NCBI GenBank assembly: GCA_964592255.1
Contig: CAZQCI010000006.1
Span: forward strand, 1 to 39,892
Length of the DNA: 39,892 nt
Source: an uncultured Nitrospiraceae bacterium
GTDB lineage: Bacteria; UBA10199; SBBF01
Direction: 5' to 3'
The number at the start of each line of letters is the position of its first letter. Position 1 is the stretch's first letter. Of the stretch, positions 3,467 through 31,894 are shown one piece after another. A program made the translations under genes and the position numbers. The notes below the pieces were generated by a model. That model made no database searches. It was not told the origin of the DNA and saw only the letters and a program-made list of their open reading frames with translations.

Positions 3467-4240
3467 TTAAGAATCCATTTCGGTAGAGTCTTTAGGTTCT
3501 TCAACATGGAGACCACATTCTTTGGAATTGGGATCCAGGGCGTTAAACCACCGCCAGCGGCCGGCGCGCCTTGGTTCTGTTGGGGAAATAGGTGTGGTGC
3601 ACAGAATGCAACCCAGCGATTCGTAGGTCCAGCCGTTTTCGTTCCAGTTAAGTAAAGGGTGCATGGGCACTTTGTTTTTCTTGATGTAGTTGCGTAATTG
3701 TTCTTCTGTCCATTTGAGAAGCGGGGAGACTTTTAAAATCGGGTGATGATCTTCCGGATGATGAATGATTTGAAATTGGGGTGTTTTGGCTCTTCGGGCC
3801 GATTGATCGCTGCGTAGTCCGGTAAGCCAAACATCCACGGTTTTGAGAATTTTATTATTGGGGCGCACTTTTCGTATATTGCAGCACAGTTCCTGTTTTT
3901 CTTTGCTGTCGAAAAAAAGATATTCGCCGTTTTCGGAAATCATTTTCTTCAAATCCTCACCATCCGGCTGAGTGCGTTCAATTTGGATTTTATATTTTTT
4001 TTCTATTTCATCGAAGAGTTTATAACTTTCCGGAAAAAGACGGAGCGTATCCAGAGTGAATACACGCGGGTTAACTTTAGCATTGTGTGCTAAGTCGATC
4101 ATGACCACACCTGTTAATTGGCCGCTAGTGCCGATGGCCGCCCGCTTGCCGAAACGTGAAAAAATTTCGCCGATCAATTGACCCGCATCGGTGATTTTTT
4201 CAAGGTCGTGGATTAGCTCGTTATTGATGATAGTTTGCAA
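3467..4240 (-). CDS. cysH: adenylylsulfate (APS) reductase, thioredoxin-dependent, Fe-S type (CysH)
   Basis: PAPS-reductase fold with the C-terminal ECGLH catalytic motif, plus the extra Cys pairs (CC in ELCCNIRK and CxxC in GCILC) that distinguish APS reductases from PAPS reductases. TTG start. Confidence 0.85.
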   Translation of the reverse strand: MQTIINNELIHDLEKITDAGQLIGEIFSRFGKRAAIGTSGQLTGVVMIDLAHNAKVNPRVFTLDTLRLFPESYKLFDEIEKKYKIQIERTQPDGEDLKKMISENGEYLFFDSKEKQELCCNIRKVRPNNKILKTVDVWLTGLRSDQSARRAKTPQFQIIHHPEDHHPILKVSPLLKWTEEQLRNYIKKNKVPMHPLLNWNENGWTYESLGCILCTTPISPTEPRRAGRWRWFNALDPNSKECGLHVEEPKDSTEMDS

Positions 4241-4251
4241 TACTTTATTTA

Positions 4252-4340
4252 TATAACTCCTCCTACCCTCCCCTTATTTTAAGGGGAGGACTATTTATTT
4301 TCCCCCTCTTAATTATAAGAGGGGGTTGGGGGGAGTTATA
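4252..4340. repeat. MITE/REP-like palindromic element, family A
   Basis: Terminal inverted repeats TATAACTCC / GGAGTTATA flank two perfect 10-bp hairpins (CCTCCCCTTA-ttt-TAAGGGGAGG and CCCCCTCTTA-atta-TAAGAGGGGG). It sits in the cysC-cysH spacer. Confidence 0.7.
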
Positions 4341-4343
4341 CAA

Positions 4344-4955
4344 TCAAATAATTTTCTTTTCTTTTAAAAATGCAATGATCTTATCAACACTATCTTTCAA
4401 TCTTTCCTTTCCCGTCTGGAGAATCAATTCCGGGTTAAGAGGGGCTTCGTAAGGAGAAGAAAGTCCAGTAAAGTCGGGAATTTTTCCGTCACGTGCTTTT
4501 TTATACAATCCTTTTGGATCCCGACTTTCACATTCTTCCAACGTGGCGGCACAGTAAATTTCTATAAACCCGCGTTGAGGGATTAAGTTTCTTACAAAAT
4601 CTCTGTCTGTACGAAAAGGAGAGATGAAGGCTGTGAGCACAATAACATTAGATTCAAAAAATAGTTTGGATACTTCACCAATTCTGCGGATGTTTTCTTT
4701 TCGATCTTCTGGGGAAAAACCCAAATTATTATTTAAGCCGTGACGGATATTATCACCATCTAATACTGTGGCGAATTTTTTTTGTTTCAAAAGAATCTTT
4801 TCAACTTCGTAAGAAATTGTGGATTTACCCGAACCGGATAACCCTGTAAACCAAAGTACAGCACCTTTTTGACCCAGCAATTGTTCACGTTGAGCGGCAT
4901 CGATATGAGCCGTTTGCCGCACAATGTTTTGGCTTTTGGGTTGTTTTTCAGTCAT
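4344..4955 (-). CDS. cysC: adenylylsulfate kinase (CysC)
   Basis: P-loop GLSGSGKST and APS-kinase-wide similarity, at 203 aa. Confidence 0.9.
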   Translation of the reverse strand: MTEKQPKSQNIVRQTAHIDAAQREQLLGQKGAVLWFTGLSGSGKSTISYEVEKILLKQKKFATVLDGDNIRHGLNNNLGFSPEDRKENIRRIGEVSKLFFESNVIVLTAFISPFRTDRDFVRNLIPQRGFIEIYCAATLEECESRDPKGLYKKARDGKIPDFTGLSSPYEAPLNPELILQTGKERLKDSVDKIIAFLKEKKII

Positions 4956-9920: not shown

Positions 9921-11357
9921 ATGTCTCAATACGAAACCGTCATTGGTCTTGAGGTGCATGCTCAGCTTCGGACTCAATCTAAAATCTTTTGTTCTTGTTC
10001 TACAGCTTTTGGATCTCCTCCTAATCAAAACACATGTCCTGTTTGTTTAGGGCTTCCGGGGGTTTTGCCTGTTTTGAATAAAAAAGTAGCTCATTTTGCC
10101 ATTGCGGCGGGGCTTGCTTTAAACTGTGATATTCAGAAAAAATCCATTTGGGCGCGAAAAAATTATTTTTATCCCGATCTTCCTAAGGGCTATCAAATTT
10201 CCCAATATGAAGAGCCTATTTGTCTCAAAGGACATTTGGATATTGTTGTTAGTGGAAACAAAAAACGTGTGGGGATTACTCGTATTCACATGGAAGAAGA
10301 TGCTGGAAAATTATTGCACGATCACGGCGACCCTTCATCGTCACACGTCGACTTAAACCGCGCGGGAACCCCGCTCATCGAAATTGTCAGCGAACCCGAT
10401 ATGCGTTCGGCCGTGGAAGCCGGAGAATATTTGCGACAGCTTCGTTCTATACTGCGCTATTGTGGTGTGTGTGACGGTAATATGGAAGAAGGCAGCTTGC
10501 GCTGTGACGCGAATGTATCGATACGTCCCTTAGGCCAAAAGGAATTCGGCACAAAAGTGGAATTAAAAAACATCAATTCGTTTAAATATGTAGAAAAAGC
10601 GATTGAGTATGAAGTGGAACGTCAAAAAGCGTGTCTTCTTTCTGGTGAAAAAATTGTTCAAGAAACCCGTCTTTTTGATTCCGCTAAAGGAACGACGGAA
10701 TCGATGCGTTCTAAAGAACAGGCGCATGATTATCGTTATTTTCCCGACCCCGATTTGGTACCCCTTGTTCTTGATGATGTTTGGATTGAGACTGTCCGCA
10801 AGGAATTACCCGAATTGCCTTTGGCGCGCTCGGCCCGTTTTATCACAGAGTATCAAATTCCGGAATATGATGCGGATGTGCTAACTGTAGAAAAAGCGCT
10901 GGCTGATTATTTTGAAGCGAGCGTCGCTCTTTGCAAACAGCCGAAGAAAGTATCCAATTGGATTATGACGGAACTTCTCCGCGAACTTAAAAATTCCGGA
11001 AAAGATATCGAAGATTCACCCATTACACCATCTCAATTAGCCAAGCTGGTAGAACTTGTAGAAAACAACACCATTAGTGGCAAAATCGGTAAAACTGTTT
11101 TTGAAGAAATGTTTGCTACTGGTAAAAATCCTGAAGCTATCATCGAGGAAAAAGGTTTTGTTCAAGTTTCCGACACCGGTGCTATCGAATCCATCATCGA
11201 CAAAGTGATGGCAGCCAATCCTCATCAACTGGCTCAATATAAATCCGGCAAAGATAAACTTTTCGGATTTTTTGTAGGCCAAGTGATGAAAGAAATGAAA
11301 GGCCAAGGAAACCCCGCCGTTATTAATGATTTGCTCAAAAAGAAATTGTCCGTTTAA
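9921..11357 (+). CDS. gatB: Asp-tRNA(Asn)/Glu-tRNA(Gln) amidotransferase subunit B (GatB)
   Basis: N-terminus [12 protein letters not shown], then the GatB/YqeY C-terminal domain, at 478 aa. Confidence 0.9.
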
Positions 11358-11632
11358 ACTTTGAGAAGTTGATAAGGCTCCAGCCCAAAAGCTTTGGCGA
11401 GTTTGAAAAGGTTGGAAAGAGTGATATTTTTGGTGTCTCCGGCTTCAATTCTTTGGAATTGCCGCAAATTCAATTCAAAATCCTGCATCTGTTCCTGAGT
11501 TAGCCCTTGGGTGGCCCTTAGTTCGGCTATTTTAAGGTGGATTTTACGGGAAAATTTTTCAAACTCTTCAAAATAATTACTTTGGCGGTGAATACCTCTT
11601 TTCTGGATGGATTTGAACTTTTTCTTAGGCAT
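11354..11632 (-). CDS. XRE-family helix-turn-helix transcriptional regulator
   Basis: 92 aa with the [16 protein letters not shown]...RIEAG. Its stop overlaps gatB by 4 nt (convergent). Confidence 0.6.
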
Positions 11633-11851: not shown

Positions 11852-12922
11852 ATGATTTCTTTTAAAACAATCGAATGGAAAAATAACACCGTTGTCATGC
11901 TCGACCAACGGGCTTTGCCGTCTCAGGAAGTTTATCTTACTTTTCGCACGGCTGAAGAAGTAGGGGAGGCTATTAAATCCATGGTTATTCGTGGGGCTCC
12001 GGCTATTGGGGTTGCGGGAGCCATGGGTTTGGCTCTGGGAGCTTTGGAGATTGAAACCACAGACTCTGCTGACTTTGTTCGTCAGTTGGAAATTAAAGCC
12101 GATATGCTTTTGAAAACACGGCCTACAGCTGTGAATCTTCAATGGGGTTTGGAAAGAATGAAGAAGGTTGTGAGTAACTCCCCCCAACCCCCTCTTACTT
12201 TAAAAGGGGGAGTTAACTTCTTACAAACTCTTCTTGTTGCCGAAGCGCAAAAAATTCTAGAAGAAGATATTACCATCAACCAAAAAATGGGGGCTTACGG
12301 AGCCTCCCTGATTCAATCGGGGGATCATGTTCTTACGCATTGCAATGCCGGGGCTTTAGCCACTGCTGGATTTGGTACAGCTTTGGGCGTTTTGTATGCC
12401 GCTTGGGAGCAAGGAAAAAAATTCGACGTGTATGCCGACGAAACTCGTCCTTTTTTGCAAGGGGCTCGTCTCACAGCCTGGGAGTTGCATAAAAATAATA
12501 TTCCTACCACCCTGATCACCGACAATATGGCGGGCTGGATGATGAAAAAAGGATTGATTACAAAAGTCATCGTCGGTGCCGACCGCATTGCGGCTAATGG
12601 AGATACAGCCAATAAGATTGGAACTTATTCTGTTGCGATTCTAGCGCATCATCACAAAATTCCTTTTTATGTGGCAGCCCCTTTATCCACCATCGATCTT
12701 AAAACCAAAACAGGGGATGGTATTGTTATTGAAGAAAGAGATACCCGGGAAGTCACTCACCTTATGGGGACACCCGCTGCCGGTAATCTCATTGCGCCGG
12801 AAGGCATTCGGGTTCGCAATCCCGCTTTTGATGTAACCCCCGCCGATCTCATCACCGCCATCATTACGGAAAAGGGAATAGTCGAAAAACCGTTTTTTCA
12901 AAATATCCAAGCTCTGTTTTGA
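11852..12922 (+). CDS. mtnA: S-methyl-5-thioribose-1-phosphate isomerase (MtnA, eIF-2B family)
   Basis: [15 protein letters not shown] and the C-terminal [18 protein letters not shown] motifs of MtnA. It contains an in-frame copy of the family-A palindromic element. Confidence 0.8.
12175..12216. repeat. in-frame copy of palindromic element family A inside mtnA
   Basis: TAACTCCCCCCAACCCCCTCTTA is the exact reverse complement of 4316-4338. A 10-bp TIR TAACTCCCCC / GGGGGAGTTA encloses a hairpin. At 42 nt (14 codons) it reads through as ..[14 protein letters not shown].. Confidence 0.7.
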
Positions 12923-16477: not shown

Positions 16478-17491
16478 TTAGGGTCTGGGTAAATGTCCCC
16501 CACCGCTTGGAAAAGTACTCGGATCGAAAGTACCTGGTGTCCAGCCGCTACCGCCAAAACATTCTGGGTAACCATCACCGTTAAAATCCATAATTCCACA
16601 ACCCAAACTAGCATTATCGGTGCTGTTCACTGTAATAACGCAGGTTTCTGAGCATTCTTTATCATCAGGAATATCATCACCGTCCGTATCGTAATAGCAC
16701 CCATTCCATGAAGAGGTATCGGTATTACTTACAGCTAAAGTAGAATCTTCTGCTTGATCCGGACATTCATCGGTTCCATCCGAGATGGCAGTGCCATCAG
16801 GGTATGCATTGTCTGTGACCGTATCACCATCGCGGTCGGAATCGCAGGCGTCCCCACAGGCTTGGGATCCATCAAAAGTGGCAGAACTGCAATCGCCATC
16901 CGTATCTTTTTGATCCGAATCGCTGACTTCGGGGCAAACATCGGCTGATAAGGCAATGCCGTCACCATCGCTGTCGTCATCGCACGTGTCGCCGGTACCA
17001 TCACTATCGGCATCTGCTTGGTCGTAATTATAATCTGTAGGGCAATTATCCGAACTATCTATAGTGCAATCACCATCGGTATCTGTTCCTGTAGCGCAAT
17101 CGCATGTATCACCAATACCGTCACCATCACCATCGGCTTGATCGGAATTACTGGTGCCGATGCAATTATCACAAGACACTCCGGCAGCAGTATATTCCGC
17201 GTAGGTTAAGACATCATTTTCATCGGTATCATAAGAAAGGCAGGAAAGGTCAGCATGGCCATCATCATCGGAATCACATGTACTTAAAACAACGGTGTCG
17301 GTAGCATCGTTAGGGCCATGGTCGCAAGAGTCCATTAATCCATCACCATCGGTATCTGTTTTAACCGATTCGCCACATTCTAGTCCGGTGCAAGCAGCCG
17401 TATTGCCGCCAGATCCACCTCCACCACTACAGGCCAAAAGAGTTAAAATAAAAACCATGAATAAAGGACGTAAGAATCTCATACTTTCCAA
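16478..17491 (-). CDS. lipoprotein with thrombospondin type-3 (calcium-binding) repeats
   Basis: Signal peptide with an LLAC lipobox and a Gly-rich tether. Repeated DxDxDGxxDxxD blocks include DNCPTDYNYDQADADSDGTGDTCD, matching the TSP3 repeat. Very Asp/Cys-rich. Confidence 0.7.
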   Translation of the reverse strand: MESMRFLRPLFMVFILTLLACSGGGGSGGNTAACTGLECGESVKTDTDGDGLMDSCDHGPNDATDTVVLSTCDSDDDGHADLSCLSYDTDENDVLTYAEYTAAGVSCDNCIGTSNSDQADGDGDGIGDTCDCATGTDTDGDCTIDSSDNCPTDYNYDQADADSDGTGDTCDDDSDGDGIALSADVCPEVSDSDQKDTDGDCSSATFDGSQACGDACDSDRDGDTVTDNAYPDGTAISDGTDECPDQAEDSTLAVSNTDTSSWNGCYYDTDGDDIPDDKECSETCVITVNSTDNASLGCGIMDFNGDGYPECFGGSGWTPGTFDPSTFPSGGGHLPRP

Positions 17492-30974: not shown

Positions 30975-31781
30975 ATGATAGGGGGATTACTCATAATGTC
31001 TGCCATCTCCATCGTCAACGCAAAAAAATCTTATGCGCATCTTCAAGCTCTTAAAGGCATTAATCTTGAAATTGAAGAAGGGGAGTTTTTTGGCCTTTTA
31101 GGACCCAATGGCGCAGGAAAAACCACCCTTATCAGCTCAATAGTTGGTCTTTGCCGCTTTGAAGGAACTATCAAAGTCCATGGATACGATGTTAAAAAGG
31201 ATTTTATCAAAGCCCATGCCCTTGTTGGTTATGCCCCGCAGGATGTTAACCTCGATCGGTTTTTCTCCATCAAAAAAATTCTTAAATTTCAAGCTGGTTT
31301 TTTTGGTATTCCACACACAAAACGTGATGAGATTATCGATCGCTTGCTGCATCAATTCCGCTTAGAAGAAAAAGCGGATAGCCCTTACTACCGCTTGTCC
31401 GGAGGCATGCAAAAAAGAGTCTTGATTGCCAAAGCTATGGTGGGATCACCGCGTGTCTTAATTCTTGATGAACCTACTGCTGGTGTTGATGTGGAACAAC
31501 GATTTGAGTTGTGGTCTTTTTTAAAAAATCTTAATGCCGACGGAACCACCATCATCCTCACCACTCATTATATTGATGAAGCCCAAGAATTATGTCAGCG
31601 GATCGGTATCATCAATCAAGGTGAAGTTAAGGAATTAGGAACCACCGACAGCCTGATTGATAAGTATTGCGAAAAAAAGGTTATCCCTAATCATATAGAA
31701 CGAGGAACCTTAGAAGACGTGTTCCTCAAAGTGGTAGGACATAAGATGAGTGAGGCAGAAAAAAGATCAGAGAAGAAGTAG
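30975..31781 (+). CDS. ABC transporter ATP-binding protein (ABC-2 type)
   Basis: Walker A GPNGAGKTT, signature LSGGMQKR and Walker B ILDEPT. The start is probably the ATG near 30996. Confidence 0.85.
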   Translation: MIGGLLIMSAISIVNAKKSYAHLQALKGINLEIEEGEFFGLLGPNGAGKTTLISSIVGLCRFEGTIKVHGYDVKKDFIKAHALVGYAPQDVNLDRFFSIKKILKFQAGFFGIPHTKRDEIIDRLLHQFRLEEKADSPYYRLSGGMQKRVLIAKAMVGSPRVLILDEPTAGVDVEQRFELWSFLKNLNADGTTIILTTHYIDEAQELCQRIGIINQGEVKELGTTDSLIDKYCEKKVIPNHIERGTLEDVFLKVVGHKMSEAEKRSEKK

Positions 31782-31879
31782 ATTGTTTTATTCCAATTTC
31801 TTCGGAACTCCTTGTCCGCCAAAGAAGGCGGACTCGTCAAACAGCCGAAGAAATTTCCACAAAACAATCTACTTCTTCT
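31771..31879. repeat. long inverted-repeat element (family D) between the ABC ATPase and permease genes
   Basis: 35-nt arms AGAAGAAGTAGATTGTTTTATTCCAATTTCTTCGG / CCGAAGAAATTTCCACAAAACAATCTACTTCTTCT (only a 5-nt central mismatch) around a GTCCGCC-aaagaa-GGCGGAC hairpin. The left arm overlaps the ATPase stop codon. Confidence 0.65.
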
Positions 31880-31894
31880 CTGATCTATAGTGAT

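Follow-up and report, generated by a model that had tools for sequence, protein, structure and literature searches.

A 41-nt segment inside mtnA, the gene for S-methyl-5-thioribose-1-phosphate isomerase (MtnA), is very probably a solo copy, slightly decayed, of a small and mobile palindromic element that was inserted among the codons of a surface loop between two helices. The gene lies in contig CAZQCI010000006.1 of an uncultured Nitrospiraceae bacterium, analysed here over its full 39,892 nucleotides (the whole stretch is called the window below). Taken alone, the mtnA segment is a clear example from outside Rickettsia of selfish palindromic DNA absorbed as the surface loop of an enzyme. This case is outweighed by the broader result: the element is nearly identical across phyla, lies in frame in core proteins and is tied to genes of the DUF559 family. 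We tentatively suggest, by analogy with the repetitive extragenic palindromes (REPs) and their associated transposases, that the TAAC-tagged palindromes and the DUF559 genes they bracket may form an undescribed, cross-phylum selfish 'REPtron' built on a Vsr-like PD-(D/E)XK nuclease, with non-autonomous hairpins that would insert beside TAAC/GTTA, leave no duplication, and routinely remodel surface loops of housekeeping proteins, among them MtnA.

A palindromic segment in the mtnA reading frame

The product of the host gene scored 450.6 bits against TIGR00512 (cut-off 279) and 473.6 bits against NF004326 (cut-off 271), and matched PDB 1t9k with E=3e-116. Its relatives come from groundwater metagenome-assembled genomes that carry the label Deltaproteobacteria. 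The element occupies residues 109–122 of the open reading frame (ORF) and introduces neither a stop codon nor a frameshift (Table 1).

The first 23 nt of the element (12175–12197) are the exact reverse complement, with 0 mismatches, of positions 4316–4338 in the spacer between a cysC-type and a cysH-type gene of the window. None of 100 dinucleotide-preserving shuffles produced such a match, even with three mismatches allowed, and gapless extension carried the similarity between the two sites to 36 nt at 83% (pair I3). The ends of the element form an inverted repeat (TAACT, 12175–12179; AGTTA, 12211–12215). In the minimum-free-energy fold (−20.1 kcal/mol, z −2.0) the 5' arm (12175–12185) pairs with 12206–12215 to give an outer 10-bp stem, TAACTCCCCC/GGGGGAGTTA; an alternative fold contains the inner stem CCCCCTCTTA/TAAAAGGGGG, with 9/10 pairs formed. 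Judged against copy B of the window and the full palindromes of three other loci (L030, L020 and L018), the mtnA copy has lost its 3' outer G-run, probably through a slippage deletion between two G-runs that would mark decay of this copy.

A preliminary description, made from the sequence of the window, had reported the 23-nt match, the terminal inverted repeats and a hairpin. All of these are confirmed here by the exact match, the TAACT/AGTTA termini and the outer and inner stems. The same description gave about 42 nt of homology ending at 12216. Homology does continue beyond the 23-mer, but over 36 nt, and the element ends at 12215 with GTTA. The 14 codons of preserved frame that it counted stand as an open frame but not as a net gain: compared with the closest orthologues, the loop is only about 5 to 7 residues longer. 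It had also proposed an alignment of orthologues and had named the outcome that would speak for coincidence: no insertion relative to orthologues, a 23-nt match by chance, and no other copies. What we observed was different on each point, with the segment absent from the closest orthologues, 36 nt of similarity and a dispersed family of copies (see below).

The two closest of 25 aligned orthologues, P0002 (78% identity) and P0003 (77%), have a short, ordinary loop at this position and no insert. Synteny with the groundwater contig L001 is kept across mtnA, and the L001 DNA at the insert position is unlike the element; immediately after the element the window reads GTTAAC, versus GTGGAC in L001.

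In an AlphaFold2 model of MtnA (overall predicted local distance difference test score, pLDDT, 88.7), the insert spans the end of helix 94–109, loop 110–117 and the start of helix 118–151. Residues 111–120 have a mean pLDDT of 62, the lowest of any ten-residue block in the model. PP...KGG inserts were found in 5/121 MtnA homologues, every one of them in this same loop, and in a tree computed with the loop masked the five carriers fall into three lineages with many insert-free ones between them. These lineages carry differing DNA sub-variants of one architecture: the insert of L003 (AAATCCCCCCCACCCCCCCTTTAACAAAGGGGGGCGAAGGGGGGATTT) is a complete two-tier hairpin (−41 kcal/mol, z = −4.9) and that of L004 is a third sub-variant. 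A further homologue, P0006 (L127 1090–1160), has another, unrelated insert of ~47 nt in the same loop, encoding STIHDPRLSAGSLVESTIHE and flanked by a 14-nt direct repeat, TCCACGATCCACGA. Because a different element fills the loop in P0006, the loop can be regarded as a permissive, repeatedly struck site. The 110–117 region of MtnA is tolerant of insertion and has been hit repeatedly, and the insert is probably neutral for MtnA function.

The two copies in the cysC-type/cysH-type spacer lie between genes that are both on the minus strand (cysC-type, 4955 to 4344; cysH-type, 4240 to 3467). At the syntenic locus of L001 the corresponding genes overlap via ATGA and have no spacer. By this comparison the composite of the two copies is an insertion too, parting genes that overlap in L001. 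A G-rich arm of the composite, GGAGGAG, lies 16 nt upstream of the TTG start of the downstream gene (4240–4346 region, minus strand) and may act as a substitute ribosome-binding site for that gene.

Intrinsic termination was considered for both sites and rejected. Nothing terminator-like was seen on either strand of the mtnA copy; in the intergenic pair, copy A qualifies only on the plus strand and both neighbouring genes are on the minus strand.

Table 1. Coordinates of mtnA, its palindromic element and the related intergenic copies in the window
Feature	Position	Strand	Remarks
mtnA, S-methyl-5-thioribose-1-phosphate isomerase	11852..12922	+	356 aa; NCBIfam TIGR00512/NF004326, PDB 1t9k
Solo palindromic element in mtnA, TAAC...GTTA (predicted)	12175..12215	+	41 nt; TAACTCCCCCCAACCCCCTCTTACTTTAAAAGGGGGAGTTA
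5' outer arm TAACTCCCCCC	12175..12185	+	TAAC tag and C-run; same as family consensus in 130 listed matches
Inner hairpin CCCCCTCTTA-CTT-TAAAAGGGGG	12188..12210	+	9/10 pairs, one C.A mismatch
3' terminus AGTTA	12211..12215	+	Without the ~8-nt 3' outer G-run (TTGGGGGG in full copies)
A-type copy TAACTCCTCCTACCCTCCCCTTA-TTT-TAAGGGGAGG	4254..4289	+	Third copy in the window; stem co-varies with that of B
B-type copy TAACTCCCCCCAACCCCCTCTTA-TAAT-TAAGAGGGGG	4299..4338	-	Read on minus strand; perfect 10-bp inner stem
BIME-like composite A+B, bounded TAAC...GTTA	4254..4338	.	85 nt, in the 103-nt cysC-type/cysH-type spacer

A dispersed family of TAAC...GTTA palindromes

Copies of the element share a two-tier palindromic architecture, TAACTCCCCC-N1-3-ACCCCCTCTTA-loop-TAAGAGGGGG(-N-GGGGGAGTTA). 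We searched a genome collection with the degenerate pattern TAACTCCYCCN{1,2}ACCCYCYCN{0,1}TTA, which describes the 5' half of the element only and fits all three window copies. By our own estimate, chance would give ~9 matches in the 2 x 596 Gb scanned; the scan returned at least 130 matches in at least 117 stretches from at least 88 genomes. The genomes are labelled as Patescibacteria (Uhr-, Doudna-, Portnoy-, Sacchari- and Parcubacteria), Nitrospirota, Planctomycetota, Omnitrophota, Geobacter and other Desulfuromonadales, Desulfobulbaceae, Syntrophales, Dehalococcoidia, Thermoanaerobaculia, Saprospiraceae, Bdellovibrionales, Alpha- and Gammaproteobacteria, and Bacillota; at the level of phyla, this near-identical ~45-nt element is spread over Patescibacteria, Nitrospirota, Planctomycetota, Omnitrophota, Desulfobacterota, Chloroflexota, Acidobacteriota and others. 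One cultured isolate (Geobacter argillaceus) and one closed chromosome are among the matches. The source contig was not among the matches listed, either because it is no species representative or because the listing ended before it.

TAAC/GTTA ends are present in 130/130 listed matches. A 3-4-nt loop followed by the complementary arm TAAGAGGGGG, both outside the search pattern, is present in 116 of the 126 listed matches that were classified, and the remaining 10 have no recognisable 3' inner arm. An outer arm plus inner hairpin is the commonest class (71 of 126), and complete two-tier palindromes, such as TAACTCCCCCTCACCCCCTCTTAACTTAAGAGGGGGTGAGGGGGAGTTA in L030, account for 17 of 126. In 27/126 a B-type copy is followed within a few bases by an A-type copy in the opposite orientation (CCTCCCCTTA...TAAGGGGAGG...GGGAGGGGTTA), the architecture of the window composite at 4254–4338 that is seen in L011 too; a single match (1 of 126) combines a complete palindrome with a following A-type copy. 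The majority of copies stand singly, between housekeeping genes or within them, and mostly in intergenic DNA.

The inner stem was examined in an alignment of 23 elements: the three copies of the window, the insert in mtnA of L003, and 19 elements selected for lying next to a DUF559 gene, irrespective of their own sequence. In this alignment 90.9% of stem cells are paired. Double-sided stem changes number 18, versus 4.7+-3.3 in shuffled alignments; 0/500 shuffles equalled the observed value, and the true register beat every slid one. The inner stem thus co-varies at the level of the family, and hairpin formation is therefore under selection. The 23-mer is identical in 67% of copy pairs from the same genome versus 9.6% of pairs from different genomes, which is the mark of amplification or homogenisation inside genomes. 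The two identical 23-mers of the window are consistent with such a process.

The gene for YggS provides a pair of filled and empty alleles. YggS of L020 contains a complete palindrome with the window's 23-mer, and its closest relative, P0243 on contig L125, has no palindrome. Over 5.5 kb L020 and L125 align collinearly with 85% nucleotide identity, and the element is the sole difference of its kind. The filled allele reads ...AAAGAATT[TAACTCCCCCCAACCCCCTCTTAATTTAAGAGGGGGCAAGGGGGA]GTTACAG... and the empty allele ...AAAGAATTGTTAGATCAA..., so that a clean 45 nt (15 codons) was gained immediately 5' of a GTTA that was already there, and no duplication of the target is visible. Because more distant YggS proteins also have no insert, the gain is the derived state. 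Viewed on the other strand, insertion was 3' of TAAC, and the target tetranucleotide completes the palindrome. A rule for the family, with GTTA/TAAC as target and no duplication, is provisionally suggested by this pair.

Among the matches listed, 19 motif/frame combinations at ~15 sites lie in a frame that runs on without a stop for 40 codons or more to either side. The host proteins of these in-frame copies include transketolase, YggS, TsaD, squalene-hopene cyclase, UvrA, MacB, a LolD-type ABC ATPase, a PfkB kinase, a GT2 glycosyltransferase, a histidine phosphatase and PrmC. An Uhrbacteria UvrA (L120 3728–6808, minus strand) contains at least 4 element-derived in-frame inserts, several of them dimers, and a Patescibacteria transketolase (L005 2091–4136, minus strand) contains two. 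Each strand of the palindrome has one stop-free frame of the three, and because only that frame is open the encoded peptides are stereotyped (NSPxPPLxLRGG or xPPLxxRGGxGEL). The insert peptide of MtnA in the window is of the forward type, NSPxPPLxL[KR]GG.

DUF559 genes and the spread of the elements

At L011 a cluster of elements surrounds a 117-aa gene, and tblastn with its product found homologues in 12/117 motif loci (0.8 Mb in total). All of the homologues tested (7/7) were confirmed as members of Pfam DUF559 (E 1e-30 to 1e-36). These chromosomal genes encode proteins of ~115-125 aa and are bracketed by elements in a fixed arrangement. The upstream side is always B-type, with the hairpin followed by GGGGGAGTTA, 0-20 nt and the ATG; the downstream side is always A-type, with a TAACYCCTCC arm that starts in the last codon or in the stop codon. 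Because the arm begins there, the DUF559 ORFs end in element-encoded tails, for example L-TPPxLPL. Generic C-run hairpins occur at 0.28 per kb in the motif loci, yet 8/12 DUF559 genes are flanked on both sides, and in L102 and L063 a stretch of 8 kb contains no hairpins other than the pair flanking DUF559. Among 110 nearest-neighbour ORFs, DUF559 is the sole recurrent family and the rest are ordinary housekeeping genes; no recurrent transposase or integrase was found among these 110, for which singletons were not listed exhaustively.

A reciprocal test used a profile built from ten DUF559 proteins to retrieve the best 120 homologues in metagenomes. Although found by protein profile alone, ~89 of these best 120 have element-type C-terminal tails. 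Tail-less homologues checked at the DNA level (3/3) are flanked likewise, and their stop codon TAA is formed by the first three bases of the TAAC arm. This use of the TAA is confined to DUF559: for upstream genes generally there was no frame bias (11, 12 and 14 of 130). Over all motif loci (L005-L121), the GGGGGAGTTA end is followed by TG, giving GTTATG, in 43/160 cases, the same junction as at the DUF559 start codon. The 5' flank of TAAC prefers TCR (TCR|TAAC in the flank logo), and the bases after GTTA vary. The GTTATG/TCR junction bias may reflect either a target preference or the remnant of a DUF559 gene.

The DUF559 profile matched PDB 3hrl (1e-31) and, weakly, the homing endonuclease I-Bth0305I (3r3p, 2e-4). 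Residues D54, E65, D67 and H71 are invariant in the DUF559 alignment (A2). The Vsr/DUF559 clade takes in T:G-mismatch nicking enzymes and homing endonucleases (PMC3424549), and one DUF559 protein causes DNA damage in Caulobacter (PMC12907096). A search for defence-system membership with PADLOC gave weak partial matches only, to DpdF and mREase_II. Back-to-back junctions lacking a gene (GGGGGAGTTAACYCC), the would-be footprints of DUF559 deletion or of empty sites, were not found in the motif loci. We regard DUF559 as the leading candidate for the enzyme acting on the hairpins, since its bracketing by elements mirrors that of REPtrons.

Several loci show the DUF559 module in isolation or in repeated surroundings. 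In L122 it stands alone between two aminoacyl-tRNA synthetase genes. In L123 (2830-3560) it lies between waaA and lpxK, with a ~125-nt composite directly repeated on both sides. The second composite of L123 is followed by ATGAGCTTG..., which resembles a second, truncated DUF559 start. Beside the module of L011 (2700-4230) is an array of ~220-nt units in 4-6 repeats, each consisting of a 130-nt 3' fragment of another gene (...AAVTGKIDVRNWQP) and a B/A hairpin composite; the array resembles a cassette array or a tandem duplication.

These observations can be accommodated in the following scheme. The element runs from a TAAC tag through a C-run outer arm, a C-rich/G-rich inner hairpin and a G-run outer arm to a GTTA terminus. 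It would insert next to an existing GTTA (TAAC on the other strand) without target-site duplication, the target completing the palindrome, in keeping with the logic of REP and IS200/IS605-type single-strand hairpin elements and not of cut-and-paste MITEs, short for miniature inverted-repeat transposable elements. By analogy with the REP-associated transposase RAYT, the Vsr-like PD-(D/E)XK protein DUF559 would nick at the tag or hairpin in trans and so drive the spread. Within a gene, the open frame encodes a linker rich in Pro and Gly, which reads NSPxPPLxL[KR]GG or, when the element is turned round, PPLxxRGGxGEL. Because just one frame per strand is open, copies inside genes would be survivors of selection, which require a length that is a multiple of three, the open frame and a tolerant loop. 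The mtnA copy would have been retained with its sole open frame, its frame-compatible length and its position in a tolerant inter-helix loop, and the three MtnA lineages would have gained different sub-variants in that loop.

Several points weigh against this scheme. For mtnA itself, the net loop gain (~5-7 codons) is smaller than the element, the nearest empty allele is only 77-78% identical, so that the insertion boundaries cannot be fixed exactly, and the z-score of the fold is modest (−2.0 on the plus strand, −0.5 on the minus strand). The GTTA-target rule comes from a single filled/empty pair with flanks ~10% diverged. Ordinary transposition alone hardly accounts for near-identity across phyla, and no vector emerged: in viral contigs the motif was found in only 1 of 2.9 million. 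Tight recognition by a co-inherited nuclease would account for the near-identity, although this is conjecture. Finally, tblastn found no DUF559 gene in the 39.9-kb contig, and the role of DUF559 could be that of a passenger, or of a homing gene for which the hairpins are simply targets.

A rather doubtful but substantial alternative is that the elements are mobile but DUF559 does not mobilise them. DUF559 would then be a homing-type selfish gene or cassette using the hairpins as landing sites or as its own regulatory or insulating ends, and the hairpins would be spread by a host process or another enzyme, such as an HUH/Y1 transposase or replication-linked hairpin excision and insertion. Vsr-like enzymes are indeed known as free-standing homing endonucleases, CGTC-tagged REPs also have no dedicated transposase (PMC3733652), and the window holds three elements without a DUF559 gene. 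The single modules between housekeeping genes in L122 and L123 fit this alternative as well, the ~125-nt direct repeats of L123 being compatible with integration at a pre-existing site. It is harder to reconcile with the precision of the bracketing across phyla, in which the arm supplies the TAA stop with its first three bases and GTTA is followed by the ATG after 0-20 nt, with the constancy of upstream B-type and downstream A-type copies, which argues for one co-evolving unit over opportunistic targeting, or with the lack of a recurrent transposase or integrase among the 110 neighbouring genes. The consensus core sites of the attC recombination sites of integrons are R'' RYYYAAC and R' GTTRRRY, and the family might be read as attC-like sites of an integron-type cassette system, with solo copies, including that in mtnA, as products of secondary-site recombination. 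The boundaries do carry AAC...GTT as in these cores, ORFs start just past GTTA and end in TAAC, the two-tier stem with its internal loop resembles the R-box/L-box layout, and the L011 units join a gene fragment to a composite. We consider this reading very improbable, since conservation across phyla extends to the sequence and not only to the structure, the cores are matched only in part, by AAC and GTT and not by the flanks in TCR|TAAC and GTTA|NN, no recurrent integrase was found among the neighbours, and copies are mostly single, between or inside housekeeping genes, with one array-like cluster (L011).

Two further explanations concern the mtnA copy in particular. The hairpin could be functional in place, as an mRNA or DNA structure tuning translation, stability or transcription, or by encoding a useful Pro/Gly loop. 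The stability of the predicted hairpin (−20.1 kcal/mol), the inserts in the same loop of three MtnA lineages, and the Shine-Dalgarno-like G-rich arms that often lie just upstream of start codons would be expected of a functional structure. However, the closest orthologues and most other MtnAs have no insert, the same element turns up in intergenic DNA as well as in unrelated proteins, neither strand of the site is terminator-like, P0006 fills this permissive loop with a different element, and the mtnA copy is decaying, with a stem mismatch and a lost G-run; a local function is thus very unlikely. Chance similarity, in-situ expansion of the loop or repeat-induced mis-assembly deserves hardly any weight. 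The contig does come from a metagenome-assembled genome, and short repeats can yield chimeric joins, but the 23-mer match arose in 0/100 shuffles, the ORF is intact and homologous on either side of the element with L001 synteny kept, and the element recurs in independent assemblies, including the isolate genome and the closed chromosome. An inserted mobile palindrome is the reading of the mtnA segment that we retain, as the preliminary description had proposed in calling it a MITE-like palindrome related to the cysC-cysH repeat; it is upheld by the homology, the absence from the closest orthologues, the kept frame and the clean presence/absence boundaries seen in YggS.

Relation to known elements and other features of the window

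The palindromes are closest in kind to REPs and to their composites, the bacterial interspersed mosaic elements (BIMEs). Both are imperfect palindromes, short (20-50 nt) and rich in G+C, that carry a conserved tetranucleotide tag on one end; single copies occur in both, as do inverted dimers built from two co-varying stem types, comparable to the Y and Z units of BIMEs; and both are chiefly intergenic, with occasional in-frame copies, including in uvrA, and no obvious target duplication (PMC3733652). The arrangement of a small nuclease gene between inverted copies likewise recalls the REPtron, in which RAYT lies between REPs as DUF559 does here (PMC3733652). The tags differ, however (TAAC/GTTA here, GTAG or CGTC in REPs), and the element described here is two-tiered, with an outer C-run/G-run arm and an inner hairpin. 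What the palindromes bracket is a gene for a DUF559 nuclease of the PD-(D/E)XK (Vsr-like) kind instead of an HUH/Y1 transposase (RAYT), and the element is near-identical across many phyla, whereas REP families are specific to a species or genus.

Intragenic REPs have been reported earlier, especially in uvrA, uvrB and recB, in several phyla and sometimes at the same site in related species (PMC3733652); the UvrA inserts found here recall those in uvrA (PMC3733652). The preliminary description was right that in-frame insertion of palindromes is known in Rickettsia. Its view that such insertion is rare elsewhere is too narrow, given the intragenic REPs of several phyla (PMC3733652) and the many housekeeping genes that contain the present family. 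The Rickettsia palindromic elements (RPEs), the classical case, resemble the present family in being selfish palindromes in frame in unrelated housekeeping genes, with peptides in surface-exposed, function-compatible segments, and differ from it in that RPE-1 is ~100-150 bp long, occurs in Rickettsia only and encodes peptides that are not Pro/Gly linkers (Ogata et al. 2000/2002, cited in PMC10969869). The present element is 41-50 nt long and occurs in uncultured groundwater and sediment bacteria; we set it apart from RPEs by these descriptions of size and taxon.

MITEs such as Correia, Nezha and Chunjie share with the element terminal inverted repeats (TAACTCCCCC/GGGGGAGTTA here), a non-autonomous, multi-copy and hairpin-forming nature, and the possibility of in-frame fusion with ORFs (PMC3184786, PMC10969869). 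Unlike them, the element shows no target-site duplication in the single filled/empty pair (~10% flank divergence), it is much shorter and conserved across phyla, and no parent DDE insertion sequence with matching repeats was found for it here, the only bracketed gene being DUF559. The likeness to MITEs and RPEs drawn in the preliminary description therefore holds for a dispersed, in-frame palindrome, and not for RPE membership, target-site duplication or a parent DDE insertion sequence; the family is nearer to tagged palindromes of the REP/BIME type.

Elements of the IS200/IS605 group and their PATE derivatives carry subterminal hairpins and follow a single-strand hairpin logic, and they insert beside a specific tetranucleotide and leave no duplication. 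The present family shares the tetranucleotide-adjacent insertion without duplication and the hairpins, and may share the single-strand logic by analogy only. It differs in that its termini are symmetric and no Y1 transposase or TnpB was associated with the family here. Free-standing Vsr-like/EDxHD homing endonucleases (I-Bth0305I; Hef of T4-like phages) resemble DUF559 as small Vsr-fold genes inserted selfishly between host genes (PMC3239194, 10.1101/2022.08.31.505936). Those genes are found in phages or introns, without a dispersed hairpin family, whereas the DUF559 genes here are chromosomal and bracketed by palindromes.

Rfam has no family for the element: searches in E-value mode on six element-rich loci and in gathering mode on the window gave only chance miRNA-like hits, apart from the riboswitch described below. 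That palindromes can insert in frame is already known; for the TAAC...GTTA family, its near-identity across phyla and its link with DUF559, no description was found. No description of the two-tier family or of the DUF559 link turned up in the searchable literature, which leaves out most subscription journals, so that an earlier description is possible. If DUF559 does mobilise the palindromes, a very large domain of unknown function would acquire its first role, REP-like elements would have a second enzymatic route, and the recurrent Pro/Gly-rich inserts of the PPLxLRGG type that confuse annotation and alignment of metagenomic proteins would have an origin.

Other features of the window were noted in passing. 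A 92-aa ORF (11354-11632, minus strand) with the look, by eye, of an XRE-type helix-turn-helix protein lies between gatB and mtnA. These two genes overlap by 4 nt in L001, and the 92-aa gene can therefore be taken as an extra insertion in the window lineage. Periodic direct repeats at 16677-17360, in units ~140-270 nt apart with cores TCACCATCG...GTATCTGTT, probably encode a repeat protein. Also present is the window's longest palindrome, an inverted repeat at 31764-31886, with 42-nt arms (90% complementary) and a 39-nt spacer, whose sequence is unrelated to that of the C-run hairpins. An S-adenosylmethionine (SAM) riboswitch (RF00162; 9759-9862, minus strand; 85 bits, E=6e-19) lies upstream of a minus-strand PALP/ThiS/JAB cluster of sulfur-metabolism genes.

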